From assembly GCA_016930375.1 (NCBI GenBank), contig JAFGGU010000096.1:3981-67980 (forward strand): a stretch of DNA of 64,000 bases, read 5' to 3'. Numbering within the stretch: position 1 is the stretch's first letter; every line of letters begins with the position of its first letter. The position numbers and the translations under genes are program-made. The notes under the pieces are model-generated. The model worked only from the letters and a program-made list of their open reading frames with translations. It was not told the origin of the DNA and did not search any database. This document shows positions 1 to 54,705 of this stretch, piece after piece. Source of the DNA: Bacteroidales bacterium. Lineage in GTDB: Bacteria; Bacteroidota; Bacteroidia; Bacteroidales; UBA10428.

Positions 1-21
1 GTTCTAAGCATTCAAATATAT

Positions 22-2205
22 ATGATTAAAAACATCGCCATTAAGGACTGTGCAAGTTTTGACAGTGTGAATGGAATTAACTTTGCACCAACTCTCGTTA
101 ATTATATTTACGGGTCAAATGGCAGTGGTAAAACTGCTATCTCAAATGTAATACGTGATTGTACAAGCTACCCCCTTTGCTCACTTGATTGGGGACTCGC
201 AGCACCGCTCCAGACTCTGGTTTACAATCGAACCTTTATCGAAGAGAATTTCGAGCAATCAAAGGAACTCAAAGGAATCTTTACGCTGGGAAAAGGTAGC
301 AAAGAGGAACTTGAAAAAATTAAAGTAAACCAAGCGGAGGTAGAGAAAAGGGAAAAATCCATCATCGACCTTAAGGGGACACTTGAAAACGAAAAACTGA
401 AACTTCTCACCATTGAAGACAACTTTGTTGATAAATGCTGGGGAGTACAAAAGAAATACGAAGGAATATTTATCAAGGCATTCGAAGGAAATAGAAATTC
501 AAAACAAAGGTTTAAAGACAAAGTTGTGTCTGAATATGCTGGTAACAAGCGACCACTTCTGTTGTTTGCTGAGTTGGAAAGCAAAGCCAGTCAAATATTA
601 AATGCTCCAGCCGTTAAGGTTGCACCTGTAATCGATTTTAGTTTGCCAGACTTTAATACTCTCGAAGAAAATCCGATTTTTCAAACAAGAATAATTGGCA
701 AAGATGATGTTGACATTGCAAGGATGATTTTAAAGCTGAACAACAGTGATTGGGTTAGGCAGGGTATAGTATTTTTTAAAGCTAACGATGAGTATTGTCC
801 TTTTTGCCAGCAAACAACGACAGAAAGTTTCAGAAAACAGTTAGACGAATACTTTGACGAGAGTTATAATCAACAGTTACAAGCATTAAAAAATGCATAT
901 GATAAATATAACTTTGAATGTGAAACACTGCTAATAGCAATTGGAAACTATTTGGCTCTGAATAATCAGTTCATTGATTTACCTGCTTTGACAGGACTTA
1001 GGGACATGATAGTTACTAAACAACAAAAGAACCTGTTGACAATTGAGAAGAAGCTAAATGAGCCGACCATTAAAATTACATTAGACAGTATTTCCGAGCA
1101 CATAGTTAAACTCAAAGAAATAATTGACCAAGCTATAACTAAGAGCAAGGAGCATAACAGACTCATCGACAACATCGAATCTGAAAAAAAAGCTTTGATT
1201 TCTAACATATGGTCGTTTATTCTCAACGAATTAAGGTTGGACTTCGGAACTTATACATCTGAAAAAGATTCCAGCGAAAAGGCGATTAAGAGTGTTTCCA
1301 CAAAAATCACTACAATCGAAGGTGAGGTAGGAGCATTGAAAACGGAGATACAGAATTCTGAAAGTAAGATTACAAGTACAAAACCCACCATCGGTACGAT
1401 AAACAAAACCCTAACAGGATTTGGTTTCACTAACTTTTCTTTAGCTGAAACTACAACAGTAGGCGGCTATAAAATTGTTCGTGAAAATGGAGTAGATGCT
1501 AAGAACACATTAAGTGAAGGGGAGAAGACATTTATTACATTCCTGTATTTTTATCATCTGACAAATGGTAGCTTTGAAACTAATCAGATAACCACTAACA
1601 AGATTCTTGTTATTGACGACCCAATATCAAGCTTAGACAGTGCTGTATTATTTATCGTATCAAATCTCGTCAGAAAACTTATCAGTGAATGCAGAGAAGG
1701 TAAAAGCCATGTGAAACAAGTATTTGTTCTGACTCATAATGTGTATTTTCATAAAGAAGTTACTTTTAAGAAGAGAAGCGAATCCAGCAGGGGGGAATCA
1801 TATTGGATAATAAGAAAAATCGGGAAAAATAGTACTATTGAGAAATACAAAGAGAATCCAGTCCAGACCTCTTACGATTTATTATGGCAGGAAATTAGAG
1901 ATAGAGCGAGTATTAATAAACTAACTGTTTTCAACACGTTGCGTAGAATTCTCGAATATTATTTTAAAATATTAGGTAAGATAAAAGATGATGAGTTGCT
2001 CGATAAGTTCGATGGCGAAGACAAAATAATAAGCAATTCACTCCTGTCGTGGATAAATGACGGGTCACATACAATAAATGACGATATATTTATATCAACT
2101 GATGAAGAAACTGTTGAAAAATACCTAAGAGTGTTCAAGAGAATTTTCGAAGTTGAAAGTCAGATTGAGCATTATAACATGATGATGAAAGTGCCTGTTA
2201 TTTAG
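22..2205 (+). CDS. RloC/PrrC-like ABC-type ATPase (AAA_13-like) with C-terminal anticodon-nuclease-like domain
   Basis: 727-aa ORF. ATPase motifs: Walker A GSNGSGKT; ABC signature LSEGEKT; Walker B/D-loop ILVIDDPISSLD; H-loop LTHN. A long Lys/Glu-rich coiled-coil insert carries a CPFC motif that looks like a Rad50 zinc hook. The C-terminal block NTLRRILEYYF...(38 aa)...WINDGSHT resembles the Arg/Glu/His arrangement of PrrC/RloC nuclease domains. Confidence 0.65.
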   Translation: MIKNIAIKDCASFDSVNGINFAPTLVNYIYGSNGSGKTAISNVIRDCTSYPLCSLDWGLAAPLQTLVYNRTFIEENFEQSKELKGIFTLGKGSKEELEKIKVNQAEVEKREKSIIDLKGTLENEKLKLLTIEDNFVDKCWGVQKKYEGIFIKAFEGNRNSKQRFKDKVVSEYAGNKRPLLLFAELESKASQILNAPAVKVAPVIDFSLPDFNTLEENPIFQTRIIGKDDVDIARMILKLNNSDWVRQGIVFFKANDEYCPFCQQTTTESFRKQLDEYFDESYNQQLQALKNAYDKYNFECETLLIAIGNYLALNNQFIDLPALTGLRDMIVTKQQKNLLTIEKKLNEPTIKITLDSISEHIVKLKEIIDQAITKSKEHNRLIDNIESEKKALISNIWSFILNELRLDFGTYTSEKDSSEKAIKSVSTKITTIEGEVGALKTEIQNSESKITSTKPTIGTINKTLTGFGFTNFSLAETTTVGGYKIVRENGVDAKNTLSEGEKTFITFLYFYHLTNGSFETNQITTNKILVIDDPISSLDSAVLFIVSNLVRKLISECREGKSHVKQVFVLTHNVYFHKEVTFKKRSESSRGESYWIIRKIGKNSTIEKYKENPVQTSYDLLWQEIRDRASINKLTVFNTLRRILEYYFKILGKIKDDELLDKFDGEDKIISNSLLSWINDGSHTINDDIFISTDEETVEKYLRVFKRIFEVESQIEHYNMMMKVPVI

Positions 2206-2330
2206 GCAATCACATTTATAAGTACGAGGTAAATAATAAATTACACTATTAATCTAAAGTAAAACATTATATATAATACGTTATTGTTATGTAAATAACC
2301 ATGATATACTTGTACTATAATTGACTTTTA

Positions 2331-2368
2331 CCCCCCCCCCTGCCTCATCACTTGCCCCACCCCCCCCC
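2331..2368 (+). repeat. Two homopolymeric C tracts: C10 (2331-2340) and CCCCAC9 (2355-2368), separated by 14 nt
   Basis: Read directly from the sequence. The tracts stand out inside an AT-rich intergenic region between the ATPase gene and the Rep-like gene. Confidence 0.9.
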
Positions 2369-2563
2369 TGTAAAATACGGTAATCGGAACGTATCCTAAT
2401 TAAACAGATTTTAATTTTGAAGTACTCTCACCACAAATGCACGTCCACCACGCATATCCTCTCTCAAAATATTTCAGTGCTGAAATGGTGGATTATAATT
2501 TTTTATAAAAAAATTTTAGCAAATCAAGGATTTTCGCTGCAATGGCAGTAGGTATGTATATAG

Positions 2564-2700
2564 TCTTCGGCAAGCTATAAGAAGAAGTAGCACTCTGTAG
2601 ACCTTTACTGGGTGCACTTCTTTAAATCAATGCTGAAGATTAAATAACTTAAATGCCGAGAAAGTTAACTTGCTGAAGAACGGCACAACTTGCCGAAGTA
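2564..2700. promoter_or_regulatory. Iteron-like repeats of GCTTGCYGAAGA upstream of the Rep-like gene
   Basis: Direct copies: TGCTGAAGA at 2631-2639; TGCCGAGAA at 2654-2662; ACTTGCTGAAGAA at 2668-2680; ACTTGCCGAAGTA at 2688-2700. The direct copies are spaced roughly 20 nt apart. One inverted copy, TCTTCGGCAAGC, lies at 2564-2575. Confidence 0.5.
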
Positions 2701-2745
2701 TGATTATCCAAAGAATTCTACTACTGGCTTCGTGGGGGTCAGTTT

Positions 2746-4116
2746 ATGAATCACGAAATTGAAGCCAACTTATTACATGCCTCTGATGAGGCAATTAAAA
2801 TCCGTTTAGGAATCTCAGGATTCCATAACTCTGTATTATCGTATGGTAAAATACTATATAACCATAGCATTTTGTCTTACGATAACGAATCCATATACTT
2901 TATAGATAAGCTACATGTAACATATAGCTTTAGTAAGAAGATTGAAAAGAGCATCGCTGAGGCATTCTACAAACGTAAACAGTATGATTGTGATAACCAT
3001 CTGATATTAATACCAAACTATAAACACGGCAATAACTACCATTATTCATTTGCGATTGAGTTTGACGGCAAGCACTTTGGTTATTTGCATCTGTGTAATA
3101 CCAAGAAAACCAATATTTGCAAGATTGAGACCGATAATCGCACTCTTTACGAATCCAGTATCATGTATATTCTTGCCAGACTATATCATATAGCATGGTC
3201 TTTTGACCTACAGTATAACAACATCAATACTTTTGAGATTGCACGTGATACAACAAAACAGTTGTACTCTCAAATGAGTGAAATTTATTACCAATCAACA
3301 ATTCGTAATGAAAATATTCAGATGATTTTTAATAAAGAGCCAAAATACAAGCCAATTACCAGAACTAAAATTCATGACTACCCTGCTGACAATGGAAATG
3401 GTGGAACATTCATTATCGGTGCTAATAGCAGTGAATCACTTATAAGGATTTACAGCAAAACCCCTGAAATAGTTGATAATAGCAACAAGAAAGAATATAT
3501 ACATGAACTTCATGTCAAACAGTTTGGCTTGTTACAAAACATTAACCGTGCTGAGGCGGTAATATTTGGGAATGCTTTTCGTACAGGTGGTATTTTAGGC
3601 TCATATGGCTACAATTTACTTGAAGTACTGATTCCACAGAACCTACCTTCAATTTATTTTAAGGTTTTAGGTGATAAGCTAACATTCAACAACCTCACAA
3701 CAAAAACATGGAATAAAGCTAACAATGAAAAATATGAAAGAGTAAGGTTGATTCCAGAATTAGACTCAAAAAACATTCAGCAGAAGAAACTCATTTTACA
3801 ACCGATAGTAACAAGATTTTCACATTGCAATCACATAAACAAGCACAAATTTAAACTCATCGAGTATCTTGATGGCGATATACCATATTCTGAATTAAAG
3901 CGGTATTTCACAGCAAAAAGGGGTAAGAATGAGATAAATGTTGATGATGTGTCGAAAGCATACCGAATAATTCAAAGGAATTATTGCGGAACGATAGACC
4001 ATGACCAAAATAAACGGATAGGCAGGTTGTTATTATCATTAGAGAGTAGAAGCAGAATTCCACACTGGTGGGCAACTGTGTGCTATGTTTTTTCGAAAAT
4101 AACCATGAAGCAATAA
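2746..4116 (+). CDS. Rep_trans-like rolling-circle replication initiator / relaxase candidate
   Basis: 456-aa ORF. Three blocks occur in the order recalled for the Rep_trans family: NTFEIARDTT (cf. RxDxAxD); GGTFIIGANSSESLIRIYSKTPE (cf. TxYxGSrxSxxxxRiYdK); INRAEAVIFGNAF (cf. wxRvExxxxg). The assignment is from memory of the family profile only. Confidence 0.45.
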   Translation: MNHEIEANLLHASDEAIKIRLGISGFHNSVLSYGKILYNHSILSYDNESIYFIDKLHVTYSFSKKIEKSIAEAFYKRKQYDCDNHLILIPNYKHGNNYHYSFAIEFDGKHFGYLHLCNTKKTNICKIETDNRTLYESSIMYILARLYHIAWSFDLQYNNINTFEIARDTTKQLYSQMSEIYYQSTIRNENIQMIFNKEPKYKPITRTKIHDYPADNGNGGTFIIGANSSESLIRIYSKTPEIVDNSNKKEYIHELHVKQFGLLQNINRAEAVIFGNAFRTGGILGSYGYNLLEVLIPQNLPSIYFKVLGDKLTFNNLTTKTWNKANNEKYERVRLIPELDSKNIQQKKLILQPIVTRFSHCNHINKHKFKLIEYLDGDIPYSELKRYFTAKRGKNEINVDDVSKAYRIIQRNYCGTIDHDQNKRIGRLLLSLESRSRIPHWWATVCYVFSKITMKQ

Positions 4117-4215
4117 CACCGGCAACAATGACATGAAGCAATAACCTTGTGGTGATGACACAGGTCATTGTATCTCTGTAGCTAAACACATGGAATTATG
4201 ACCATGAAGCAGTGA
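4099..4215 (+). repeat. Left three-subsite repeat module (cores ATAACCATGAAGCAATAA 4099-4116, ATGACATGAAGCAATAA 4128-4144, ATGACCATGAAGCAGTGA 4198-4215)
   Basis: Core spacing is 29 and 70 nt. An internal bulged hairpin ACCTTGTG...CACAGGT is present. The module is a direct repeat of 7211-7329. Confidence 0.85.
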
Positions 4216-4375
4216 ATATATAAAATTAGCACTGGTCGCTAAAATTATGGAGTAAAAGCACAGTAAGTAAGAGGAACTTACATATGGTTTCTAATTGTCG
4301 GCAAAAATTGGTATCATTACACATGTGCATAAAGAAAATAGCGGACTGTGTCATATTAAAACGGAATAGGTTCTT

Positions 4376-4383
4376 TACATTTG
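4376..4383 (+). promoter_or_regulatory. Candidate Bacteroidota sigma-A -7 element (TACATTTG = TAnnTTTG) for the endonuclease gene
   Basis: Exact match to the TAnnTTTG consensus, ending 29 nt upstream of the ATG at 4413. I saw no clear -33 TTTG. Confidence 0.3.
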
Positions 4384-4412
4384 TGGGAATAAATAATCAA
4401 TCATTGCGCCAT

Positions 4413-5450
4413 ATGAATTACAAGCGGACTATTGATGAGTTGAAGACCAAGGCAATAAACTTTTGGTCAGAAGAATTGCTCATTGAGGCAAGTAAGAAGA
4501 GTAAAATTCCAATTTTATTACAGACCCAAGACCAATTTTTAAACATCATAAAGGTTGAGGTTGACTCGGTGGATAATTTTTTCAAAATTGTTGAAGCTGC
4601 AAAAATCAGCATAAATTTATTTGTTCAACACCTTATGGTTCTTTCTAATGTTGGTGGAGAGTTCCTTCAAAGAATTAATGGGAATTATGCTACGTTGTTT
4701 CCATCGAAATCAATAACGTTCACATGGCGTGGTGCAAATTATGTTTACAAGTTCTCAGCCTTACCATTGAAACACCTTGGTAATACTACACTTAATATCG
4801 ATGGTGAAAACCTGTTTAAAAAGCAGCCGCTTACACCGCTTTATAAGGATGTTATAATTCTGATGTTATTTGGTAGTTCATGTACGATGGATGAAACGTC
4901 AACCATTCTTGAAGAATGCCAGATTGGTGGATTAATTGGCAATGATGTCGAATTGGAAAAATTTGTTAGGCAAAGATATATTCAAGTAAGTCGTATCACA
5001 GGTGGAGCGAAAGCAAACGACTTGGGTCAAATTGCACAGACAAAGTTGATGGATTACATGACAGCGAAACTGAAAGAACTAAATCTGACATTCAGAACAA
5101 ATGGTCATGTGCCAGAAATTTATAATAAAGAAGAAGATGGTGTTAAGACACTGACTACATTCGACTTGGTTATCAATAATGCTGAAAAAACTAAATATGT
5201 GGTTATTGAACTTACCTTTCAAGTGACAACAAATAGCACGATTGAAAGAAAATCGGGTCAAGCAATGGAAAGGTACAAGCAGGTTGATGCTAAAGGATAC
5301 AAGATTGCCTATGTCATTGATGGTGCTGGTAATTTTCAACGGACAGCAGCGATAAGCAAAATTTGTTCCTATAGTCACTGTAATGTTGCATATACTGAAG
5401 CCGAATTTGATGTTCTCATTGAGTTTATATCAAGCTATATTAAATCATAG
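4413..5450 (+). CDS. Type II restriction endonuclease, DpnII/MboI-like (GATC?)
   Basis: The ORF track starts at 4284, but M44 (ATG 4413) follows the promoter-like motif. The C-terminal block TFDLVINN..YVVIELTFQVTTNSTIERKSGQAMERYK...YKIAYVIDGAGNF parallels the DpnII block RFDFVIKN..YLIEVNFYSGSGSKLNETARSYK...FMWITDGQGW (from memory). The gene lies directly upstream of, and 1 nt from, a DNA methyltransferase gene. Confidence 0.55.
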   Translation: MNYKRTIDELKTKAINFWSEELLIEASKKSKIPILLQTQDQFLNIIKVEVDSVDNFFKIVEAAKISINLFVQHLMVLSNVGGEFLQRINGNYATLFPSKSITFTWRGANYVYKFSALPLKHLGNTTLNIDGENLFKKQPLTPLYKDVIILMLFGSSCTMDETSTILEECQIGGLIGNDVELEKFVRQRYIQVSRITGGAKANDLGQIAQTKLMDYMTAKLKELNLTFRTNGHVPEIYNKEEDGVKTLTTFDLVINNAEKTKYVVIELTFQVTTNSTIERKSGQAMERYKQVDAKGYKIAYVIDGAGNFQRTAAISKICSYSHCNVAYTEAEFDVLIEFISSYIKS

Positions 5451-5451
5451 T

Positions 5452-7203
5452 ATGGAATTCTTTTCTGAAAATAGCATACCACTCCAAATAAAAAAAATTC
5501 AGCTTCATGATATTGGTGCTGTTACAGGTAATAATGCATTTGTCATTTTGCTACCAAAGGAAAAGGGCATCGATTTAGCTCCCATTTATCAGACCATTTT
5601 AAATAGCATGTTGGATGAAAGTGCACTGATTACCGTTGGTCATCCTGAGATATTGGTTGAGGCACAAATCTTATTAAAAGCATCACTTAGGTATCAGTCA
5701 TGGATAGCAATTCGAGAACGGAATGCCTCAACAGACATCGATTCTCACCGATTGGAAAATTCTCATTTCGGTGCTCTCATTCATTCAAAGTATAAGAATT
5801 CTCTTAAACACTGCGAAACAAGGTTAAAGTACACCATTTGTCCATTTTGTGGTAAGACCACGAAGGATTATGGGGGGAAGAAACACACCTTTCATGAGTT
5901 CGGCACATTAATATCTGATGTGTGGAAGGAGATTTCACTTGACTATTCTAATGAGGATGATATTAATAAACTCCTTAGCTACTTTGCATTGATTTTTGGG
6001 TTGCAGGAGTATAGTGATTTGATTGTTCTCGATTACCGTCAGACAGGTACACAGGTAAGCATACAGCCAAATTTAACCCGAATCTGGTCTGATGTAACAA
6101 ACGCATATGGAAATAATTCTTTGCTAATCAAAGGCGATTGTATTGAGGAACTGAAGAAAATACCAGACAACTCTATTGATTTTATATTTGCCGACCCCCC
6201 ATATAATGTTAATAAAAAATATGTTGGTTATAATGATGGGAAAGCAATTGAGGATTACTTTAACTGGTGTGATGAATGGTTATTACAATTAGCACGGGTA
6301 TTAAAGCCACACAGAACCCTCGCAGTATTAAACATACCATTATGGTCGATAAGGCATTTTGAGTACCTTAAAACCATATTAAACTACCAGAATTGGATAG
6401 TCTGGGATGGATTATCATTCCCTGTAAGACAAATAATGCCTGCACATTACTCGATATTATGTTTTACTAAAGGAGAGAGCAGAGTATTACCCAAATTTGC
6501 CGCTGCAGGTGGCGTGAACGAGATAGTGAATGCGTCAAAGTCCTTTAAGTCTCTAAAACCGCTAAAGGCTGGGTATTGTCTGAGAGAGTCTTGTATAAAC
6601 AAAAGGAGCAAGGTTGATTCAAGTACTCGTGAAATTGATGTTTCTGACATATGGTGGGATATCCATAGATTAAAGCACAATAGTAGACGTGTTGACCATC
6701 CATGTCAATTACCACCAGCTTTAATGTATCGATTGATTTCGATATTCTCTGATGAGGGTGAGATAGTTCTTGATTGTTTTAATGGTGCAGGAACAACAAC
6801 ACTATGTGCACAACAGCTAAACAGGATGTATATCGGCATCGAAGCATCAGATGATTATCACGCAATTGCTCAGAAACGACATGATGAGATTTTGAATGGA
6901 CTTGACCCATTCCGTAAAGAGCCACGCAAAGTTGGTGCGAAGAATAGTAGAGTTCCAAGGATGGAAAAAAACACAACTGGTTTTACTAAGAAAGAGATTC
7001 AGTTAGATGTTAGAAATGTTGCGTTAGTATTAGGACATATCCCCACAAAAGAAGAATACAAGACTGCTGGTAAATATCCCATTGATATCGTTGATAGACT
7101 ATTTCAATCATGGAGTGATGCATGTGTAGCAACAAAGACTAATGGCGTTACAGAGTACCCTAAAGAAGCGACTGAACAGCAGAGAACACTTGAATTTACA
7201 TGA
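5452..7203 (+). CDS. Beta-class N6-adenine/N4-cytosine DNA methyltransferase with N- and C-terminal extensions
   Basis: ATG 5452 lies 1 nt after the endonuclease stop (5448-5450). Motif IV DFIFADPPYN precedes motif I VLDCFNGAGTT, which is the beta-class order, and HPCQLPPAL lies between them. The ~240-aa N-terminal extension contains CPFCGK..GGKKH (zinc-ribbon-like). The ~100-aa C-terminal tail contains HIPTKEEYKTAGKYPIDIVDRLFQSWSDA. Confidence 0.85.
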   Translation: MEFFSENSIPLQIKKIQLHDIGAVTGNNAFVILLPKEKGIDLAPIYQTILNSMLDESALITVGHPEILVEAQILLKASLRYQSWIAIRERNASTDIDSHRLENSHFGALIHSKYKNSLKHCETRLKYTICPFCGKTTKDYGGKKHTFHEFGTLISDVWKEISLDYSNEDDINKLLSYFALIFGLQEYSDLIVLDYRQTGTQVSIQPNLTRIWSDVTNAYGNNSLLIKGDCIEELKKIPDNSIDFIFADPPYNVNKKYVGYNDGKAIEDYFNWCDEWLLQLARVLKPHRTLAVLNIPLWSIRHFEYLKTILNYQNWIVWDGLSFPVRQIMPAHYSILCFTKGESRVLPKFAAAGGVNEIVNASKSFKSLKPLKAGYCLRESCINKRSKVDSSTREIDVSDIWWDIHRLKHNSRRVDHPCQLPPALMYRLISIFSDEGEIVLDCFNGAGTTTLCAQQLNRMYIGIEASDDYHAIAQKRHDEILNGLDPFRKEPRKVGAKNSRVPRMEKNTTGFTKKEIQLDVRNVALVLGHIPTKEEYKTAGKYPIDIVDRLFQSWSDACVATKTNGVTEYPKEATEQQRTLEFT

Positions 7204-7210
7204 TACAGTG

Positions 7211-7329
7211 ATGACCATGAATCTATAGCACCCGGACTAATGACCATGAAGGAATGACCTTGTAACAATTGCACAAGTCATAACAACCCAGGAGTCGTAA
7301 CACCGAGATTTATGACCATGAAGCAATGT
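7211..7329 (+). repeat. Right three-subsite repeat module (cores ATGACCATGAATCTATAG 7211-7228, ATGACCATGAAGGAATGA 7240-7257, ATGACCATGAAGCAATGT 7312-7329)
   Basis: Core spacing is 29 and 72 nt, mirroring the left module. An internal bulged hairpin ATGACCTTGT...ACAAGTCAT is present. The module lies between the methyltransferase stop and the recombinase stop. Confidence 0.85.
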
Positions 7330-7341
7330 CACTTATGCGTA

Positions 7342-8988
7342 TTACTGGTTTATTTCTTGCACAAGAGTCATTTTGTGTAGTTTATTATTAAGCAGTTGGT
7401 AGCTGTGACCATTGAATCCTGTTACGGTATAAAAATCATACTTGTTAAATAATGTGGTTATCACTATTCGGGTGATTCTCTCATGATGTATTTTCGGGAT
7501 AAGTTTTTCCAAGTTTGCATGGTCAGATATACTGCTTTTTTTTATCTCCACTGATAATATGAAAGTCTTAATGAGCCTTTTATATAATTCTATACCCATG
7601 TCATACCTTTCAGTAAGGGACTTTACACCATAAGTGTTTATCTGGTCTACAAATTGTTCAACATTTAACATTGCATCAGATGTGCTCGACTGGTTTAATG
7701 TAGATTCATTTATTAGTAGCTGATTCAATCTGTTGCTATTAATTATTATACCGTCTTCGATTTTATTTTTCTGGGACAGATATTCTGCCTCATCGATAAC
7801 ATTGCTTACCACAAGCTCAGTAAGTCTCTTAGTTTTGTTGCTGCTCTTTTCGATTTCAGCTTTTAATATGTCTATTTCCCGTCTGATGTTGCTCAATTCA
7901 TGATTCCTGCTTTTATTGAATTTACTTATATGTTTTTCTTTGTGAATACGCTTGGAGAATTCAACCAGCAAAGCAAATAACGCATAGTAGACCATTGAGT
8001 TTAACAGATTAATGCCAATGCTATTATTTCCGCAGCTTTCTGTAAGCTGTCCTAATGTTGCTTTGCGATTGCTCATGCATTTATATGCAAAATCCTTTCT
8101 GGATTTTCTTGCATGTATAAAATATCCTGAACCACATTCACCACATACAACCAAACCACTGAGATAATTCTGAAATATTGCCTTGTCTTTGTTCAAGTTG
8201 CTGTTCTTCTTAAATATTTGCTGCGCTGTCAAATAGTCGCTTTTACTTACTATAGCAGGGACTTCAACGAAACCAAAATTATACTTTCGTTGTCCGAAAT
8301 ACATAGTATTGTGTAAAATATCACGAACCTGTACATCATTCCACTTAACATCCTTTTTAGTAGGAATATTGGTTAGATTTAAGTGCTTTGAAATTGACGG
8401 AGAAGCCATACCACCAATAAATAACTTATATATTTCTTTTACTATTTCGGCTTCGTTGGCATCAACTACTATTTTACCGTTGAGGTTAGTATATCCATAT
8501 GGGGACAAGCTAAAAGCACCGCCACTTTTCAGATGATGGTGCAAACCTCTTTTGCTTCGGTCAATTATAGTCGTTCTCTCATACTGTGCCACACTTCCCA
8601 TAATACCTAAAATCATATTTGCAGTATTATTTATGGTCTTGTCATCATTCAATGTACTTATGTTTTCTTTCTTGGCATATACATTTATACGTTTTTCAGT
8701 CAGTAATTCGATGGTGGTAAGTACGTCTTTCAGATTTCTGCCCAAACGACTTAATTCCCAGACGATTAAATTGTCAACAGGATGTGTTTCAATAAAGTTT
8801 AATAGCTCCTTAAAGGCTAATCTGTCACTGGCTTTGGTTTTTCCACTGATTATTTCGTCAAATACTCCTAATACACTATATTTCATGTATTTAGCATAGT
8901 TCTTTAGGTCATCAATCTGAGATTTATTGCTCTGGTGTTCTGTGGAGACACGAGAGTAAATGACACAAGTACCAGAAGCAGTCTTCAT
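7342..8988 (-). CDS. Large serine recombinase (integrase)
   Basis: 548 aa. The N-terminal resolvase catalytic motif is VIYSRVSTEHQ. Downstream lie a recombinase domain, a zinc-ribbon-like CGECGSGY...C...C segment and a coiled-coil-like region. The gene sits at the extreme edge of the island. Confidence 0.9.
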   Translation of the reverse strand: MKTASGTCVIYSRVSTEHQSNKSQIDDLKNYAKYMKYSVLGVFDEIISGKTKASDRLAFKELLNFIETHPVDNLIVWELSRLGRNLKDVLTTIELLTEKRINVYAKKENISTLNDDKTINNTANMILGIMGSVAQYERTTIIDRSKRGLHHHLKSGGAFSLSPYGYTNLNGKIVVDANEAEIVKEIYKLFIGGMASPSISKHLNLTNIPTKKDVKWNDVQVRDILHNTMYFGQRKYNFGFVEVPAIVSKSDYLTAQQIFKKNSNLNKDKAIFQNYLSGLVVCGECGSGYFIHARKSRKDFAYKCMSNRKATLGQLTESCGNNSIGINLLNSMVYYALFALLVEFSKRIHKEKHISKFNKSRNHELSNIRREIDILKAEIEKSSNKTKRLTELVVSNVIDEAEYLSQKNKIEDGIIINSNRLNQLLINESTLNQSSTSDAMLNVEQFVDQINTYGVKSLTERYDMGIELYKRLIKTFILSVEIKKSSISDHANLEKLIPKIHHERITRIVITTLFNKYDFYTVTGFNGHSYQLLNNKLHKMTLVQEINQ

Positions 8989-9011
8989 ATTGTAAATGGT
9001 TTATTCATATG

Positions 9012-9019
9012 CAAATGTA
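9012..9019 (-). promoter_or_regulatory. Candidate -7 element (TACATTTG on the minus strand) for the recombinase gene
   Basis: The reverse complement of 9012-9019 is TACATTTG (TAnnTTTG), 23 nt upstream of the recombinase ATG and within the last ~40 nt of the island. Confidence 0.3.
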
Positions 9020-9053
9020 ATAAAACACCACACATAAAAAAAATAATACAGAT

Positions 9054-9752
9054 GTGGCCCTGGTAGGAGGGGGATCCTACCCTCAACCCGGGGAAATTTC
9101 CCTGGCCCATAACGGTGTGCTTTTTCTCGACGAATTGCCGGAATTCAAGCGGTCGGTGCTCGAAGTTATGCGTCAGCCGCTGGAGGACCGGAACATCACC
9201 ATCTCCCGGTCGAAATTCAGTATTGAATACCCTGCCTCATTTATGTTGATCGCGAGCATGAATCCTTGTCCCTGCGGCTTTTACAACCATCCGGAAAAGG
9301 ACTGCGTATGTTCATCCGGCGTGGTGCAGAAATACCTGAACCGCATTTCGGGACCGCTGCTCGACCGCATCGACATTCATATTGAGGTAGTGCCGGTACC
9401 TTTTGACAAGCTTTCGGAGCTGAAACCTTCGGAATCCAGCGAAGATGTTCGTTACCGGGTGATAAAGGCCCGGAAGATCCAGCACGAACGCTATAAGAGC
9501 AATGACGGGATACATTGCAATGCCCAACTCACGCCGGCCCTGATGCGGGAGCATTGCCAGATCAGTCAGGAAGGCAGCCTGCTTCTCAAAAATGCCATGG
9601 AAAAGCTGGGCCTTTCAGCCCGCGCCTATGACCGGATCATTAAAGTTTCCCGCACCGTAGCAGACCTGGAAGAGAGCACGAATATCGAACCGCATCACCT
9701 GGCAGAGGCGATCAATTACAGGAGCCTGGACAGGGAGAGCTGGGCGGGGTAA
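9054..9752 (+). pseudogene. comM: 3' fragment of comM/yifB (Mg-chelatase-like AAA+ competence protein) truncated by the island insertion
   Basis: Translation begins mid-protein at (D)[31 protein letters not shown]... and continues through the conserved C-terminal half to a normal stop. The N-terminal ~280 aa (Lon-like and Walker A parts) are absent. The GTG at 9054 is an ORF-caller artefact rather than a real start. Confidence 0.85.
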
Positions 9753-18308: not shown

Positions 18309-19283
18309 TTAAATAATTAAATCTTCTTCCCTGGGTTTGTCTTGATCAAAATCAAAAATCCTGTTCTTAGGCGGCAGGTAATAAACCCTGGGTTGTGTAC
18401 CAAGTTCCGGCATCAGCCGGTAACCTCCGTTTTGCTTGAGCAGTTCACTCAATTTTACAGTTTCCTTGGTAGTTCCGTTGGTTACAGCATCTTCGTTTTC
18501 ATCACCGAAATAGTAAACGCCATTGGGGCAGGCAGAGACACAATACGGCAATTGGTTCTCCCTGAGCCTGTCGGAGCTAAACAAACACTTGGAGATGGTA
18601 CCTTTCTTTTGCGGAACATTGAGTTCAATATCATATTCCTTATCCTTATCGGCCTGGGCATTGACCGGTTCCTCCCAGTGAAACATCCTGGCGGAGTATG
18701 GGCAGGCTGCGATACAGAATCTGCAGCCAATGCAGCGTTCATTGTCAATCAACACCACACCGTCCTGACGCTTAAATGTAGCATCAACAGGGCATACCGA
18801 TACGCAGGGAGGGTTGTCGCAATGCTGGCAGGGTTTTGGCATGAAATAGGCAGGTGTATTCACGGATTCCTGCATTACCAGCGTATTGATATGATATTCA
18901 TAAGGCCTGAGATGATGAGCGCTCTGGCAGGCCTCTATGCACTTTCTTGCATTCCGGCATTTCGAAAGGTCGATAATCATCACCCATTTCTTTCCGGGTA
19001 TGCCTTCTCTTCCTCTTTTCTGCAATTCCTTTAACCCGGGTTCGTAGCCCTCTACCTCCTCTGCCGCTATTTTAACCAGTTTATTGTCAGTTGTAAGTAC
19101 CTTGACAAACTCTCCTTTGTTTTTCGATTTTTCATGCCTGTATCCGGCAAGAACTGCCGCTGCCCCTGATAATACTGCTGCCCCTGAGATTCCGGCTTTT
19201 TTCAGGAAGTCCCGCCGGGAGGCTTCAAGTGTTTGTTGTATATCAGTGTTTTCAGCTTTATTTTTATTTTTCTTTCCACCCAT
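18309..19283 (-). CDS. Tat-exported 4Fe-4S ferredoxin-type subunit (NrfC/PsrB/ActB2-like)
   Basis: It has the twin-arginine signal SRRDFLKKAGISGAAV and several Cys clusters (CQHCDNPPCVSVCP, CIGCRFCIAACP, ...CVSACP). Confidence 0.85.
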   Translation of the reverse strand: MGGKKNKNKAENTDIQQTLEASRRDFLKKAGISGAAVLSGAAAVLAGYRHEKSKNKGEFVKVLTTDNKLVKIAAEEVEGYEPGLKELQKRGREGIPGKKWVMIIDLSKCRNARKCIEACQSAHHLRPYEYHINTLVMQESVNTPAYFMPKPCQHCDNPPCVSVCPVDATFKRQDGVVLIDNERCIGCRFCIAACPYSARMFHWEEPVNAQADKDKEYDIELNVPQKKGTISKCLFSSDRLRENQLPYCVSACPNGVYYFGDENEDAVTNGTTKETVKLSELLKQNGGYRLMPELGTQPRVYYLPPKNRIFDFDQDKPREEDLII

Positions 19284-19493
19284 ATATTTTGAAAAGGTTA
19301 ATCACCATTCATGAAATCATCTGACTACATTGTATTAAAAATACAAAATATTCATTACTCATATGTTAAAAGTAAAATTATTTGTTTCTGTCATTTACTG
19401 ATGATGCGTTAACTTTTAAAAAATATTAGTATATTATTGATATTAAATATAATATAAGCGATTATTTATTTTATTGATTTGAATTGACCTGTA

Positions 19494-19567
19494 GACCCCA
19501 ACGGGGTCAAATATTAATAACCGTGGGTTACAATCACGGTTATTGAAATTAAGCCACTTCGTGGCTT
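19494..19567. other. Three consecutive perfect hairpins in the intergenic region upstream of the respiratory operon
   Basis: Hairpin 1: GACCCC-aac-GGGGTC at 19494-19508. Hairpin 2: AATAACCGTG-ggttacaat-CACGGTTATT at ~19516-19544. Hairpin 3: AAGCCAC-ttc-GTGGCTT at 19551-19567. Confidence 0.6.
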
Positions 19568-19733
19568 GGTAGCAAAACAGGTGATATGTATCTTATAATT
19601 AACTGAGACTTCAACATATATTTTTTCTCTCCGTCCGACACTTCAGTTACGCTTGTTAATTCATTTAAAAGGAAATAATAAAGTCATCCGGGAGTGAATT
19701 CCTTGACTTCGCTGAGAGGGGAAGTGAATTCCA

Positions 19734-20201
19734 TCAGGCAGGTGCAGGTTTTGGAATTTTCCTGTTCTTAGGATTAAAAATAGCTTTCAGCGCCAGGTAA
19801 GCTAATCCAATGGTAAGTATATCACCGACAACTGCCACAAGAACTGCCAGTGCATTTAATCCCGAGCATGCAAGGCCGCACGATGCTGCCGCAATTCCAT
19901 ATGCTGCCGCGCAAAATGCTACGACTGTCAGAAACGTCAAAAGAACTTTCGCACCGGTACTTAAACCTTTTTTCTTAGGATTCGCCGGCTCATCCTGGAG
20001 CTGTTCTTCATAGGCATAAAATGCCTGATGACCTGTTGTCTGAATGTTATGGATTGCATGGTATCCGGACTGTTGCATTGTGCCCGCCGGAATAACTGTT
20101 TGCCGGGAAAAATGATTGCCAACCCATACCATAAGCAGGAAGCCCGATATAAATAACAGAATATCATGCACATGGTGTTTGGCCCCATGAATTATAAACA
20201 T
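19734..20201 (-). CDS. Hypothetical membrane protein
   Basis: 155 aa with an N-terminal and a C-terminal hydrophobic region (Ala/Gly/Cys-rich TM pair). I recognised no motif. Confidence 0.4.
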   Translation of the reverse strand: MFIIHGAKHHVHDILLFISGFLLMVWVGNHFSRQTVIPAGTMQQSGYHAIHNIQTTGHQAFYAYEEQLQDEPANPKKKGLSTGAKVLLTFLTVVAFCAAAYGIAAASCGLACSGLNALAVLVAVVGDILTIGLAYLALKAIFNPKNRKIPKPAPA

Positions 20202-20372
20202 AATTTAAAACAGTAATCACTTAAAGTCAAACTTTTACCCGACAATTCTACACATGAATGTGAAGAACGCCAGAATGCTTTCAGAGATAAGGATTACCGA
20301 AGCAAGAAAATATTCCAAAAAGTCAGGCGTTATTCTATAAAGTCAATCCTGGTTTTATCAATACTATACCTT

Positions 20373-21080
20373 ATGAAAACGAAATTACTGTCAACCCTGT
20401 TTACCCTGTTTCTTTTAGGTTTTGTTTCATTTTCCCATGGTCAGCAAACGACAAGCGACCCGTTGCGGTTTTCCGCCGGGGTGTTGACCGGTTACAACCG
20501 GGGATTTGGGATGCACGCCAACATCATGGCCCATAACTTTGCCCCGGGATTTCCGTTTGAACTCAGATTTGGAATGGGCTATACACTGCTAAATCCCGGA
20601 AATGCAGCTGATGCGCGTCGCATATTCATCAACAATGCCACCAACGGAACACCTGAAAAGAAGGGCAGATCGTTTGATATCAGGTTTGACTTTCTATTGT
20701 CAAAGCCTCTTTTCGGAACAGGTCATTCCTACCTTGTTCTTGGCCCGAGGTTTTCCACTTTCAGGGGAAATTTTGTATATGTCGGAGGTAATGAGGATTT
20801 TGATGTTACCTCCCATCAGTGGGGTATTGGGGCCGGTATCGAGAATCATTTCAGAATGACATCCAACCTGAATCTCATAATGGCCATCGGGCTTGATCAT
20901 TATTTCCCCAGTACACTTACGGGTCATGACACCTCCTATAGTCCGGATAACGATAATATCAACCCGCGGGAAGATAACCAGGATGGTGATACACCTTTCA
21001 CCTACCGGGATGCCGACAAGGCCATCCGGCAACCTGTGTTTATGCCAAGAGCGATGATTGGCGTTAGTTTCGGTTTGTAG
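20373..21080 (+). CDS. Outer-membrane beta-barrel protein (porin-family-like)
   Basis: It has a signal peptide (MKTKLLSTLFTLFLLGFVSFSHG), alternating beta-strand-like pattern and a terminal aromatic (...IGVSFGL). Confidence 0.5.
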   Translation: MKTKLLSTLFTLFLLGFVSFSHGQQTTSDPLRFSAGVLTGYNRGFGMHANIMAHNFAPGFPFELRFGMGYTLLNPGNAADARRIFINNATNGTPEKKGRSFDIRFDFLLSKPLFGTGHSYLVLGPRFSTFRGNFVYVGGNEDFDVTSHQWGIGAGIENHFRMTSNLNLIMAIGLDHYFPSTLTGHDTSYSPDNDNINPREDNQDGDTPFTYRDADKAIRQPVFMPRAMIGVSFGL

Positions 21081-52686: not shown

Positions 52687-52886
52687 TCCTTTTTTTGTCG
52701 GCACCCTTGCTGTGCCAGTAAGCAAAGTATGGCCAGAAGCAGAAGATTACTGGAAACCAGAAAATAGTTGATTTCATGTCTGATCCCAAAAGGATTACTC
52801 CCCATAAAGAGTGCAATGGTTCCGAAGATGATCAGGGCAACGGCGATTATACCACTGATCCAGGCGACAATTGTAAATAATTTCAT
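52683..52886 (-). CDS. Small two-TM hypothetical membrane protein
   Basis: 67 aa with two hydrophobic helices. It overlaps the yidD stop convergently by 4 nt. Confidence 0.35.
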   Translation of the reverse strand: MKLFTIVAWISGIIAVALIIFGTIALFMGSNPFGIRHEINYFLVSSNLLLLAILCLLAQQGCRQKKD

Positions 52887-52897
52887 GGCGGTGTTTT

Positions 52898-53392
52898 TTA
52901 TGTTGAAAAAGATGAATCAATCGTAGCAGCTACCTGTTTGAGCTCCCGGACAATGAGCACCATCGCTTCGGAATTCAGCCGGGGCCTGTTGAAACTGTCC
53001 ATGATATCGGCATCGTTCTGCTGTATCAGAGGATACCAGGCGCCGGGACTTTTCAGGTCGTCCTTCAGCCTGGGAACGATGTGCAGATGCAGATGCTCAA
53101 TGGTCTGTCCTGCCTCAGGTTTTTCCTGGATTGACCAGTCGAATGAATCGGTATGAAAAGCTTTCATGAGAATACGGACGGTTATCCTGGCTGTTTCGAA
53201 AAATTCATACAATTCCTGGTCGTTCAGTTCCAGGATTCCTGAATAATGTTTCACGGGAATAATGAGTGAATGCCCCGGAAGCACGGGGGCAATATTATAA
53301 ATGGACAGGAATTCAGCCTTTTTATAAAAGACGGATGCTTTAACAGATGCATCACAAAAAGGGCACGATGAAATATTTTTAAGGTCTGTCAT
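52898..53392 (-). CDS. HIT-family nucleotide hydrolase/transferase
   Basis: It has the histidine triad HLHLHIVPR and an N-terminal CPFC. Confidence 0.8.
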   Translation of the reverse strand: MTDLKNISSCPFCDASVKASVFYKKAEFLSIYNIAPVLPGHSLIIPVKHYSGILELNDQELYEFFETARITVRILMKAFHTDSFDWSIQEKPEAGQTIEHLHLHIVPRLKDDLKSPGAWYPLIQQNDADIMDSFNRPRLNSEAMVLIVRELKQVAATIDSSFST

Positions 53393-53527
53393 TTCGGTGA
53401 AAGCTTATCCATTATGCCAAGTTACGTCAAAATGGTCAAACTTGCATGCAATTCCTTTAATAACCTGGCTAATGCATCCGGCTGGCCGGCGAATAAGTGC
53501 CGGCCACTGCCACATGCAGGATTAACC

Positions 53528-53878
53528 TTATTCTTCCTGAGAGCCTTTTCCGCGCATCATAACCATCTCATTCATCACAATTTCAGTAAAGAAGCACTTT
53601 TTGCCATCCTTGTCATCATAGGACCGGTGTGTGAGTTTTCCTTCCACAGCCACCTCACTGCCCTTGACCAGGTATTTTTCTACCAGCTTGGCAAGATTAC
53701 CCCAGGCCACAAGGTTATGCCACTGGGTTTCGGTGATTTTTTTGCCGCTGGTATCACGGTATGAATCGGTGGTAGCCAGTGAAAAGCGGGCCATGGCCTT
53801 GCCGTTGTCGAATGTCCTTACTTCCGGGTTCTGGCCCAGGTTACCGATTAACTGAACCTTGTTGCGTAATGTGTTCAT
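53528..53878 (-). CDS. ssb: Single-stranded DNA-binding protein (short form)
   Basis: It has the OB-fold N-terminus MNTLRNKVQLIGNLGQNPEVRTF..G...A.FSLAT and WHNLVAWG. At 116 aa, it ends ...GKGSQEE without a typical acidic DDxPF tail. Confidence 0.8.
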   Translation of the reverse strand: MNTLRNKVQLIGNLGQNPEVRTFDNGKAMARFSLATTDSYRDTSGKKITETQWHNLVAWGNLAKLVEKYLVKGSEVAVEGKLTHRSYDDKDGKKCFFTEIVMNEMVMMRGKGSQEE

Positions 53879-54059
53879 AACAGTTGAATTTAAAGGTTAA
53901 AAAAACTTGTTATTTTAGTTGTCTAAATTGACGATTCAAAGTAACTTACACCCGCACAGATTATTCGGTTAATAATTGTTTATTGTCATTTGTAAACGGA
54001 TGTAAGTGTTTGTAAACGGGTACAAACGCATATATAATAGAATTACAATAAATTAAGTT

Positions 54060-54425
54060 ATGGAAAAAAGATGCCTGGAATGCGGCGAAGTTTTACATGG
54101 CCGCACCGATAAGAAGTTTTGTTCAGATGCCTGCCGAAACACTTACAACAACAAGCTAAAAAGTGTGGCAGGCAGCCAGTATGTCAGAAAGGTGAACGGT
54201 ATCCTGAAGAAAAACAGGAATATCATGGCAAGCCTGAATCCTGAAGGCAAGATTCGTTTGCATAAGGCACGGCTTGTTAAAAAGGGATTTGATTTCGGAT
54301 TTGTCACCAACCTGTACAGGACGAAAGCAGGTACGATTTATTATTTCTGTTATGACCAGGGTTATTTGCCACTGGATAATGACTTCTATATGCTGGTAAG
54401 CAGGAAGGTTGATGAAGCAGGGTGA
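54060..54425 (+). CDS. Hypothetical protein with N-terminal zinc-ribbon-like motif
   Basis: 121 aa with CLECGE...(11)...CSDACRNTYNN. Confidence 0.45.
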   Translation: MEKRCLECGEVLHGRTDKKFCSDACRNTYNNKLKSVAGSQYVRKVNGILKKNRNIMASLNPEGKIRLHKARLVKKGFDFGFVTNLYRTKAGTIYYFCYDQGYLPLDNDFYMLVSRKVDEAG

Positions 54426-54429
54426 GCGC

Positions 54430-54705
54430 TTAAAGAGATCCGTTGGAATCAGCCAATTGATCAATATTCACAAGGGAATTGGGTAAAATATTCCGGGGAA
54501 TTCGTTTGCCAAGTTTCATATATGCATTATACCTTTTGCACATTTTATATTTTTTGTTCACCTGCAAACAGTAAAGGCTTCTGTATGTGAGACCAACCAT
54601 TTCGTTATGGCAGAGATTGTTGAGGTAAACCGAGCAATCCTCTAATATCGGGCAATGCATTGTGTTTTTCATGAGCGTTTTTATCCATGTAAAATTCCTA
54701 TACAA
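54430..54705 (-). CDS. Hypothetical Cys-rich small protein
   Basis: 91-aa ORF (possibly starting at an internal Met) with seven Cys. I recognised no motif. Confidence 0.3.
   Translation of the reverse strand: MYRNFTWIKTLMKNTMHCPILEDCSVYLNNLCHNEMVGLTYRSLYCLQVNKKYKMCKRYNAYMKLGKRIPRNILPNSLVNIDQLADSNGSL

Follow-up and report, generated by a model that had tools for sequence, protein, structure and literature searches.

How does a 9-kb island in a bacterial chromosome come to lack a tetranucleotide that the adjoining host DNA carries at ordinary density, and is the restriction-modification (R-M) system encoded by the island responsible? The question arises in a 64,000-nt stretch of DNA (the window) from a Bacteroidales bacterium (GenBank assembly GCA_016930375.1, contig JAFGGU010000096.1, positions 3,981 to 67,980 of the forward strand), in which an element integrated into the host gene comM occupies positions 1-9053 and contains no GATC. 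A preliminary description of the window had taken the R-M pair of this island for a DpnII-like, GATC-cutting system and had proposed that the element had been cleared of its own system's target, the GATC-rich chromosome becoming dependent on the element's methylase; as a fallback, it had considered a purge imposed by GATC- or G6mATC-directed systems over the host range. We compared the island with the host remainder of the window (9054-64000; 54,947 nt) and with related elements elsewhere, and find that the fallback is the probable answer.

Absence of GATC from the island and its relatives

An exact count gave 0 GATC in the island, with a G+C content (GC) of 35.5%, compared with 317 in the host portion (307.7 expected, z = +0.7; GC 45.2%). 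Base composition predicts 29.7 sites in the island, first- and second-order Markov simulations predict 28.2 ± 5.2 and 23.0 ± 4.7, respectively, and the maximal-order Markov formula gives 23.9 (z = −5.8). The simulated count never fell below 9 in 2 × 1000 simulations, zero being reached in 0/2000, and an island with no GATC has a Poisson probability of ~4e-11 to 1e-13. Among all 256 tetranucleotides, GATC shows the strongest depletion in the island, and each of the five island genes, taken one by one, has 0 sites vs 2.5-7.2 expected per gene. The longest run without GATC, 9,073 nt, is the island, whereas the median spacing in the host is 115 nt and the next-longest gap 2,324 nt. The preliminary reading of the letters therefore holds on recount, with none of the about 24-30 expected sites present and no trace of a near-expected density. 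The same is true of its subsidiary counts: the first GATC is at 9073-9076 in the comM fragment and is followed by at least five more within ~700 nt (9248, 9476, 9560, 9635 and, last, 9710), and TCGA, reported at least eleven times in the first 2.2 kb, occurs 14 times within 1-2200 and 35 times in the whole island.

The island is also devoid of CTAG, GGCC and CGCG (0 each), with 2 CCGG and 2 GCGC, none of which had been remarked before. The host portion contains only 6 CTAG in 55 kb and 383 CCGG sites, ~2.7 times the number expected from base composition. Two GATC-free gaps in the host portion, 18344-20668 (2.3 kb; a 4Fe-4S protein / NrfD neighbourhood) and 52857-54437 (1.6 kb; a HIT-family protein), were considered as further islands and rejected, being ordinary host genes of normal GC. 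The whole window, scanned for tRNA genes and Rfam families, gave no match.

Sister loci were retrieved from NCBI, JGI, ENA and Logan assemblies. Homologs of the island's serine recombinase (50-67% identity) adjoin the same comM break in loci L010, L011, L016, L026 and L027. Six independent sister elements, with cargo that is unrelated to that of the island or unidentified, proved GATC-free save for one site in L028, so that the GATC density of homologous elements, which the preliminary description had named as a check, is depleted to 0 or, in L028, to 1:

L010, JGI metagenome: partial element, cargo not known; 0 GATC in 3.5 kb
L011, Carboxylicivirga: Bse634I-like restriction endonuclease, 5-methylcytosine (m5C) methylase and Vsr, plus a second, unrelated tandem element; 0 GATC in 10.3 kb
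L016 = L026, two metagenomes: open reading frames (ORFs) without PHROG match; 0 GATC in 11.7 kb
L027, metagenome: secreted Endonuclease I and others; 0 GATC in 7.2 kb
L013, Maribellus: Shedu, ABC-3C, Mrr-like, Endonuclease I; 0 GATC in 12.6 kb
L028, 6708-13164 on an 832-kb contig of JGI 3300035390: complete 6.5-kb element in yjbQ; 1 intergenic GATC vs ~16 expected

For the family-wide statistics, a non-redundant set of 7 elements (57.1 kb) was assembled, in which L016 and L026 (99.1% identical) were counted once; even across core genes, the seven share just ~65-70% nucleotide identity. The depleted words of this set are as follows:

GATC: observed 1, expected 164.3, z = −15.2
GGCC: observed 4, expected 38.5, z = −6.6
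CGCG: observed 1, expected 22.6, z = −5.2
CTAG: observed 20, expected 77.1, z = −7.4
AGCT: observed 99, expected 136.7, z = −4.6, a partial depletion

The CTAG depletion is not specific to the elements, because CTAG is scarce in hosts too, and TCGA, CATG, GTAC, ACGT, CCGG and GCGC are at expectation. When the set was enlarged by L011b, L014 and L015 to 77.7 kb, the single GATC was set against 216 expected.

Synonymous codons were shuffled within 54 element ORFs such that proteins and codon usage were preserved. The shuffled ORFs yielded 124 ± 9 GATC (minimum 95), compared with 0 observed, and 30 GGCC and 19 CGCG, compared with 4 and 0, respectively, whereas the control words were unaffected (TCGA, 143 vs 141; CATG, 116 vs 120). 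The same ORFs display pronounced codon-context biases. Asp preceding a codon that starts with C is encoded by GAT 0 times and by GAC 65 times, the figures elsewhere being 663 and 225; Ile following a codon that ends with G is never encoded by ATC (0/240, vs 255/1,250 elsewhere); and Ser following an xGA codon never uses TCN (0/18). Host genes have none of these biases. As far as the compared sequences go, these results show that the purge characterises the element family as a whole, whatever the cargo and integration site, that it acts via synonymous codon choice and that it has outlasted a deep divergence among the elements.

Pooled host flanks contain 516 GATC vs 523 expected, with a sharp change at the attachment (att) junctions, and in two negative controls, AT-rich elements with recombinases 32-38% identical to that of the island (L017 and L032), GATC is normal. 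Elements from two Dysgonomonas metagenome-assembled genomes (MAGs; L014 3001-13000 and L015 6001-12997), with GC of 20-30%, have 0 GATC, 0 GGCC and 0 CCGG over 7-10 kb; their serine recombinases are only distantly related, and the trait therefore reaches beyond the comM family. The Maribellus host flank (L013 1-8999) is itself GATC-poor, with 9 sites vs 26.5 expected (ratio 0.34), whereas other hosts are nearer expectation, which suggests that the Maribellus chromosome is under GATC-directed restriction pressure.

The restriction-modification cassette and its recoding

The island and its right border comprise the following features:

1..9052, integrated element: ~9.2 kb in full, GC 35.5% vs 45% in the host, GATC-free
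22..2205, plus strand: AAA_13 / SMC-like ATPase, 727 aa, cargo 1 (Pfam AAA_13, E = 9e-175)
2206..2745: spacer of 540 nt, 5' of the core gene, with homopolymer tracts C10 (2331-2340) and C4AC9 (2355-2368)
2746..4116, plus strand: core gene for a 456-aa protein kept across the element family, with sub-threshold Rep_trans / MOB_T resemblance
4085..4225, plus strand: left copy of an imperfect direct repeat of ~135 nt, with ATGACCATGAAG-like motifs
4413..5450, plus strand: BanI-family Type II restriction endonuclease, 345 aa, cargo 2a (PF24447, E = 2e-127)
5383..7203, plus strand: beta-class N6_N4 methyltransferase with FADPPY motif and C-terminal HNH_repeat, cargo 2b (PF01555, E = 3e-42; PF18780)
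7195..7335, plus strand: right copy of the imperfect direct repeat of ~135 nt, with ATGACCATGAAG-like motifs
7342..8988, minus strand: large serine recombinase (integrase), 548 aa, core (Resolvase, Recombinase and Zn_ribbon_recom)
9020..9053: right attachment site (attR), aligned with 4 sister attR; end motif CCACA(C/T)ATAAA conserved in the family, shared GA at 9051-9052
9054..9752, plus strand: 3' fragment of host comM/yifB, profile positions 278-499 (TIGR00368, E = 4e-90; Pfam Mg_chelatase and Mg_chelatase_C)

The endonuclease had been likened to the DpnII/MboI family, an assignment that profile searches do not bear out. The protein matches Pfam RE_BanI (PF24447) with 425 bits over profile positions 1-337 of 338, whereas the DpnII profile (PF04556) gives no match to it even at E <= 10. 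It further matches PADLOC REase_II (E = 3e-85), and PF26568, a C-terminal domain, is precomputed for P0001, a protein identical to it; a sequence search of the PDB with the endonuclease gave no match. Some ~47%-identical homologs do show a weak C-terminal DpnII match (12-26 bits vs 464-514 for RE_BanI), and NCBI calls one of them 'DpnII family'; a remote relationship between BanI and DpnII is probably what the preliminary description had sensed.

The methylase of the pair, ~600 aa with an N-terminal extension, is neither Dam-like (alpha class, PF02086) nor of the short DpnA type; its best NCBIfam matches, YhdJ and CcrM, are far below cutoff, and it has relatives in the PDB. As listed, its ORF shares 68 nt with the endonuclease gene, the likelier start being Met24 at 5452, directly after the stop; the two genes of orthologous cassettes have no more than 4 nt in common or a gap of a few nucleotides between them. 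A ~600-aa N6_N4 + HNH_repeat methylase of the same kind invariably follows the endonuclease in Gloeothece, Desulfonema, Chloroflexi and metagenomes, the pair forming a cassette of two genes that is conserved, and a beta-class DPPY methylase of this size with an HNH_repeat tail is the partner in about 1,700 homologs too. RE_BanI homologs with 39% identity to the island endonuclease, found on small enterobacterial plasmids, adjoin m5C methylases. These plasmids (e.g. NZ_CP148487.1) are mobilizable E. coli / Salmonella plasmids of 4-7 kb.

Prototypes of the BanI / HgiCI / Eco64I type recognise GGYRCC and are partnered by an m5C methylase, a feature that the island pair, with its DPPY amino-methyltransferase, does not share. 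With an amino-methyltransferase as partner, the base that is modified, and perhaps the exact site too, would differ from those of the prototypes; the DPPY motif suggests that adenine is methylated, and our guess for the site is one with an A, such as a subset of GGYRCC. Post-segregational killing is generic for Type II R-M systems, and the island's own system may also stabilise the island in this way, at its own non-GATC site.

The same cassette outside the element is not poor in GATC. Orthologous cassettes from Gloeothece, Desulfonema, Chloroflexi and a metagenome contain 11, 13, 16 and 16 GATC per ~2.8 kb vs ~10 expected, whereas the island cassette has 0 vs 9.5 expected (the AAA_13 gene likewise has 0 vs 7.0 expected). 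The endonuclease genes nearest to that of the island (86% and 78% amino-acid identity; GC 34-36%) hold 2 and 4 GATC, a normal density, and at all six of these positions (6/6) the island copy keeps the amino acids by means of GATC-free codons (amino acids, closest gene, island):

LI: TTGATC, TTAATT
AI: GCGATC, GCGATA
DQ: GATCAA, GACCAA
DL: GATCTA, GACTTG
DL: GATCTG, GACTTG
TI: ACGATC, ACGATT

In the genes compared, these replacements show that newly captured cargo, like the core genes, is recoded to a GATC-free form. The proposal that the carrier was purged of the target of its own system does not survive these data: sister elements without the cassette are equally GATC-free and the same cassette elsewhere is GATC-normal. 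The supposed addiction of the GATC-rich chromosome to the island's methylase falls with it, as nothing connects GATC to this enzyme. On this reading, the island's R-M system is unrelated to the GATC purge and is just one cargo among others.

Anatomy of the element and of its relatives

The left 155 nt of the island and the left attachment site (attL) lie outside the window, on Logan contig L001, and those 155 nt are GATC-free as well; L001 encodes an identical AAA_13 protein, and the N-terminal half of comM is located 146 nt upstream of the AAA_13 gene. comM is broken after ...HHTIS, with the right junction at 9050-9053 and the host gene resuming at 9053. A GA dinucleotide is common to both junctions, the joining of which reconstitutes comM, and fits the 2-bp crossover of serine recombinases. 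The AAA_13 ATPase matches the PADLOC candidate defence system PDC-S06 (E = 2e-261), matches to LmuB and PrrC being weaker. Identical copies of the endonuclease, the recombinase and the 456-aa core protein are annotated in a Bacteroidales MAG.

Along its full length the core protein shares 34% identity with an L011 ORF; 7 further homologs are 47-63% identical to it. Six of the 8 members matched PF02486 (Rep_trans) below the Pfam threshold, with a best E = 1.7e-4. The AlphaFold2 model of the protein was poor (mean predicted local distance difference test score, pLDDT, of 52; reasonable at residues 1-166 only), and a Foldseek search of the model against the PDB gave nothing below E = 0.1. Because the structure route failed, the Rep_trans idea draws solely on the consistent sub-threshold matches to the hidden Markov model. 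The C10 and C4AC9 tracts 5' of the core gene are unusual at 35% GC and might be phase-variable or part of an origin/nick region.

The direct repeats at 4085-4225 and 7195-7335 (~70% identity) bracket the R-M cassette. Because repeats of ~135 nt flank the pair, the cassette appears to be a self-contained module that was inserted into the backbone; the repeats themselves could be a scar of module insertion, a long target duplication or regulatory sites. Each copy contains about three ATGACCATGAAG-like motifs and a small hairpin, with the exact motif at 4198, 7240 and 7312, and the motif is absent from all other retrieved loci.

None of the five ORFs annotated in the 9.2-kb element is a conjugation (mating-pair-formation) gene. 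Megablast of the island found no match among plasmids, phages or E. coli genomes, and scans of viral contigs recovered no relative of the core protein and only distant, GATC-normal relatives of the recombinase. The best label for the element, given this gene content, is a small integrative, probably mobilizable, defence carrier.

The sister loci are varied in arrangement. L028 has the recombinase and a 455-aa core protein as in the comM family and, in addition, a second small resolvase and a helix-turn-helix gene. In L011 (9947-20282; Carboxylicivirga sp. RSCT41), two unrelated serine-recombinase elements lie in tandem in one comM, at residues ~289 and ~220; their recombinases are 52% and 27% identical to that of the island, and neither element contains GATC. 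Several families of serine-recombinase elements seem to use comM as a hotspot. In L013 (7406-21623; Maribellus maritimus 5E3) and L023 (8437-14277), a GATC-free element is located beside an intact comM and not within it, the far ends not having been recovered; in L013, two small ORFs separate the element boundary from the recombinase. The 99.1% identical element of L016 (9933-21641) and L026 (7281-18824), found in two unrelated metagenome assemblies, carries ~10 small minus-strand ORFs without PHROG match, of which only the two largest have weak or faint Pfam matches. The PHROGs scan of 10 L016 ORFs, yielding no match, gives no support for a phage or satellite nature.

Selective agent and comparison with known systems

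Restriction-site avoidance by a promiscuous family of integrative elements probably explains the absence of GATC. The members of the family are 6.5 to >12 kb in size, integrate into chromosomes of Bacteroidia (Bacteroidales and Marinilabiliales) and are built on a shared core of a large serine recombinase and a ~455-aa Rep_trans-like protein, the remainder being exchangeable cargo with a presumed anti-phage role. Most members use one comM codon, that of the island recurring at 5 further loci, and one member uses yjbQ; the island's own cargo consists of a PDC-S06 ATPase and a BanI-family R-M system. Such an element would enter new cells with a GATC methylation state mismatched to the recipient. 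Where GATC methylation is patchy, unmethylated sites would be cut by DpnII/MboI/Sau3AI-type enzymes and methylated ones by DpnI-type enzymes, and the site-free element alone would be safe both ways. Short palindromes such as GATC, GGCC and CGCG are classical Type II targets. We infer restriction during horizontal transfer to be the selective agent because the depleted words are short palindromes of this kind and the control words are unaffected. The fallback of the preliminary description, a purge by GATC- or G6mATC-directed systems over the host range, gains support from the same observations: the trait follows the backbone, the recoding is synonymous and other 4-bp palindromes are depleted. 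In the Bacteroides fragilis group, GATC methylation is present in all five species analysed, in only some isolates or lineages, and CGCG and CCWGG motifs are methylated as well (PMC10333322).

Several points weigh against restriction-site avoidance as the explanation. No GATC-directed nuclease was identified in the host sequences here, which comprise flanks only, and the agent is thus deduced indirectly. The assignment of the core protein as a Rep protein or relaxase is sub-threshold and no origin of transfer (oriT) was identified, leaving transfer as a proposal. The junctions are deduced from alignment with intact comM genes and sister attR, and word counts are uninformative as to the site of the island's own system (0 GGYRCC and 0 GGTACC in the island vs ~2 and ~0.3 expected; the host has 48 GGYRCC in 55 kb), on which the literature searched for BanI/HgiCI yielded nothing of use either. 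Finally, GATC, with 1 site in 57 kb, has been removed far more thoroughly than GGCC and CGCG, and a GATC-specific process other than classical restriction could be at work.

Two forms of such a process deserve attention. The ban on GATC may reflect a GATC-specific step of the life cycle, for instance the processing of transferred or rolling-circle DNA by a GATC-directed nuclease of a helper conjugative element or of the host, a reading to which we give little credence. If it were true, any internal GATC would be lethal, the defence-gene shuttles would be obligately GATC-free and captured genes would have to be recoded before a chimera spreads; in a weaker version, GATC-directed nucleases would be the single dominant barrier to gene flow across Bacteroidia. 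Alternatively, the elements would avoid a methylation-linked process, be it the nicking or cutting of GATC that is transiently un- or hemi-methylated in intermediates that replicate rapidly, by rolling circle or as single strands, within a GATC-methylating host (the argument made for phiX174 and T7), or else Dam-dependent regulation. This, too, seems unlikely. The core protein is weakly Rep_trans-like, most hosts have GATC at or near expectation, compatible with GATC methylation, and GGCC and CGCG are purged much less completely than GATC, all of which a methylation-linked process would accommodate. However, GGCC and CGCG are unrelated to Dam, yet the elements, unlike the hosts, show a 10- to 20-fold depletion of both, and the GATC depletion of the Maribellus host itself points to GATC-directed cleavage in the host range. 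To our knowledge, MutH and SeqA are confined to Gammaproteobacteria, which also counts against a methylation-linked process. On its side stands the precedent of phiX174, a rolling-circle replicon wholly without GATC (PMC5014478).

A passive signature of a donor, left by recent origin in a GATC-free lineage and not yet ameliorated, is very unlikely. The elements are indeed always more AT-rich (26-37% GC) than their hosts, and Maribellus shows that genome-level GATC depletion exists in the clade, but even this GATC-poor host has a ratio of 0.34 and not 0. Moreover, the elements reside in at least six different hosts or metagenomes, all at or near zero despite the low identity of their core genes and their unrelated cargo, and the endonuclease gene was silently recoded though its nearest relatives of the same GC hold GATC.

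It is highly improbable that the island's R-M pair recognises GATC in the manner of DpnII/MboI, with the element purged of its own target and the chromosome addicted. The weak DpnII similarity and the NCBI name among the ~47%-identical homologs speak for it, and a DPPY amino-methyltransferase could in principle methylate the A of GATC. Against it stand the full-length RE_BanI match with no DpnII match beside it, the m5C methylases paired with the 39%-identical plasmid homologs as in the BanI/Eco64I GGYRCC systems, the GATC-free sisters that lack the cassette, the GATC-normal closest relatives of the endonuclease gene and the fact that GGCC and CGCG are purged too. An artefact of assembly or library preparation, or chance, can be neglected, given the same pattern in independent assemblies (NCBI, JGI, ENA and Logan), a transition exactly at the att junctions with GATC-normal flanks on the same contigs and a chance probability <1e-10 for the window alone.

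An R-M system beside a missing tetranucleotide thus need not target that tetranucleotide, and the tempting inference is corrected here. The elements form a family of which we found no description: small, mostly comM-targeting Bacteroidia shuttles for R-M, Shedu, ABC-3C and PDC-S06 that are invisible to common 4-bp restriction enzymes. The silent recoding of captured genes within roughly 15-20% protein divergence offers a natural gauge of the strength and speed of selection against a restriction site. In practical terms, such elements can be detected cheaply by a long stretch without GATC in an otherwise GATC-normal genome, and the purged words GATC, GGCC and CGCG suggest sites to drop from vectors for poorly tractable Bacteroidia.

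Mobile genomes devoid of GATC have been described among viruses. The site is totally absent from staphylococcal phage K and Twort-like phages, the hosts of which possess GATC-directed enzymes (PMC5618024), and phiX174 likewise has none; the island family differs in comprising small chromosomal integrative elements without phage genes and in that the purge is demonstrably imposed on captured cargo genes as well. Small broad-host-range plasmids avoid R-M targets, reportedly with the clearest signal for 6-bp targets (Shaw, Rocha & MacLean 2023, PMC10359461). As in that account and in RP4-type palindrome avoidance, the means is tuning of the sequence rather than anti-restriction genes, and depletion is reported to be stronger in the mobile element than in host core genes; unlike the plasmids, the island family eliminates a 4-bp site essentially completely and throughout a whole integrative family. 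Complementary DpnI/DpnII systems provide the closest logic, GATC avoidance having been proposed to ease genetic exchange (Rusinov et al. 2015, PMC4687349), since DNA of differing methylation status is cut either way and loss of the site helps; in that case the avoidance concerns chromosomes of species with DpnI-like enzymes, whereas here it concerns a mobile element and not most of its hosts.

The individual parts of the element have counterparts, too. The endonuclease resembles BanI, HgiCI and Eco64I in matching RE_BanI over the full profile and differs in its partner, the ~600-aa beta-class DPPY amino-methyltransferase with HNH_repeat. AbaR/Tn6022 in Acinetobacter are comM-interrupting Tn7-like transposons with resistance genes; they share with the island family the interruption of comM/yifB by a mobile island, whereas members of the island family bring defence genes and insert at a fixed codon by means of a serine recombinase. 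Among integrative and mobilizable elements (IMEs), those with MOB_T relaxases have been described mainly from Firmicutes. Like the serine-recombinase IMEs with Rep_trans/MOB_T relaxases (review, PMC5704250), the island is small, integrated in a conserved gene and equipped with a single Rep_trans-like protein and no conjugation apparatus; the difference is that the Rep_trans similarity of its core protein is below the Pfam threshold. Our literature search, of incomplete coverage, turned up neither GATC-free integrative elements nor comM-targeting serine-recombinase islands described from Bacteroidia. Restriction-site avoidance is a known kind of phenomenon, of which the present case is an unusually complete and family-wide example.

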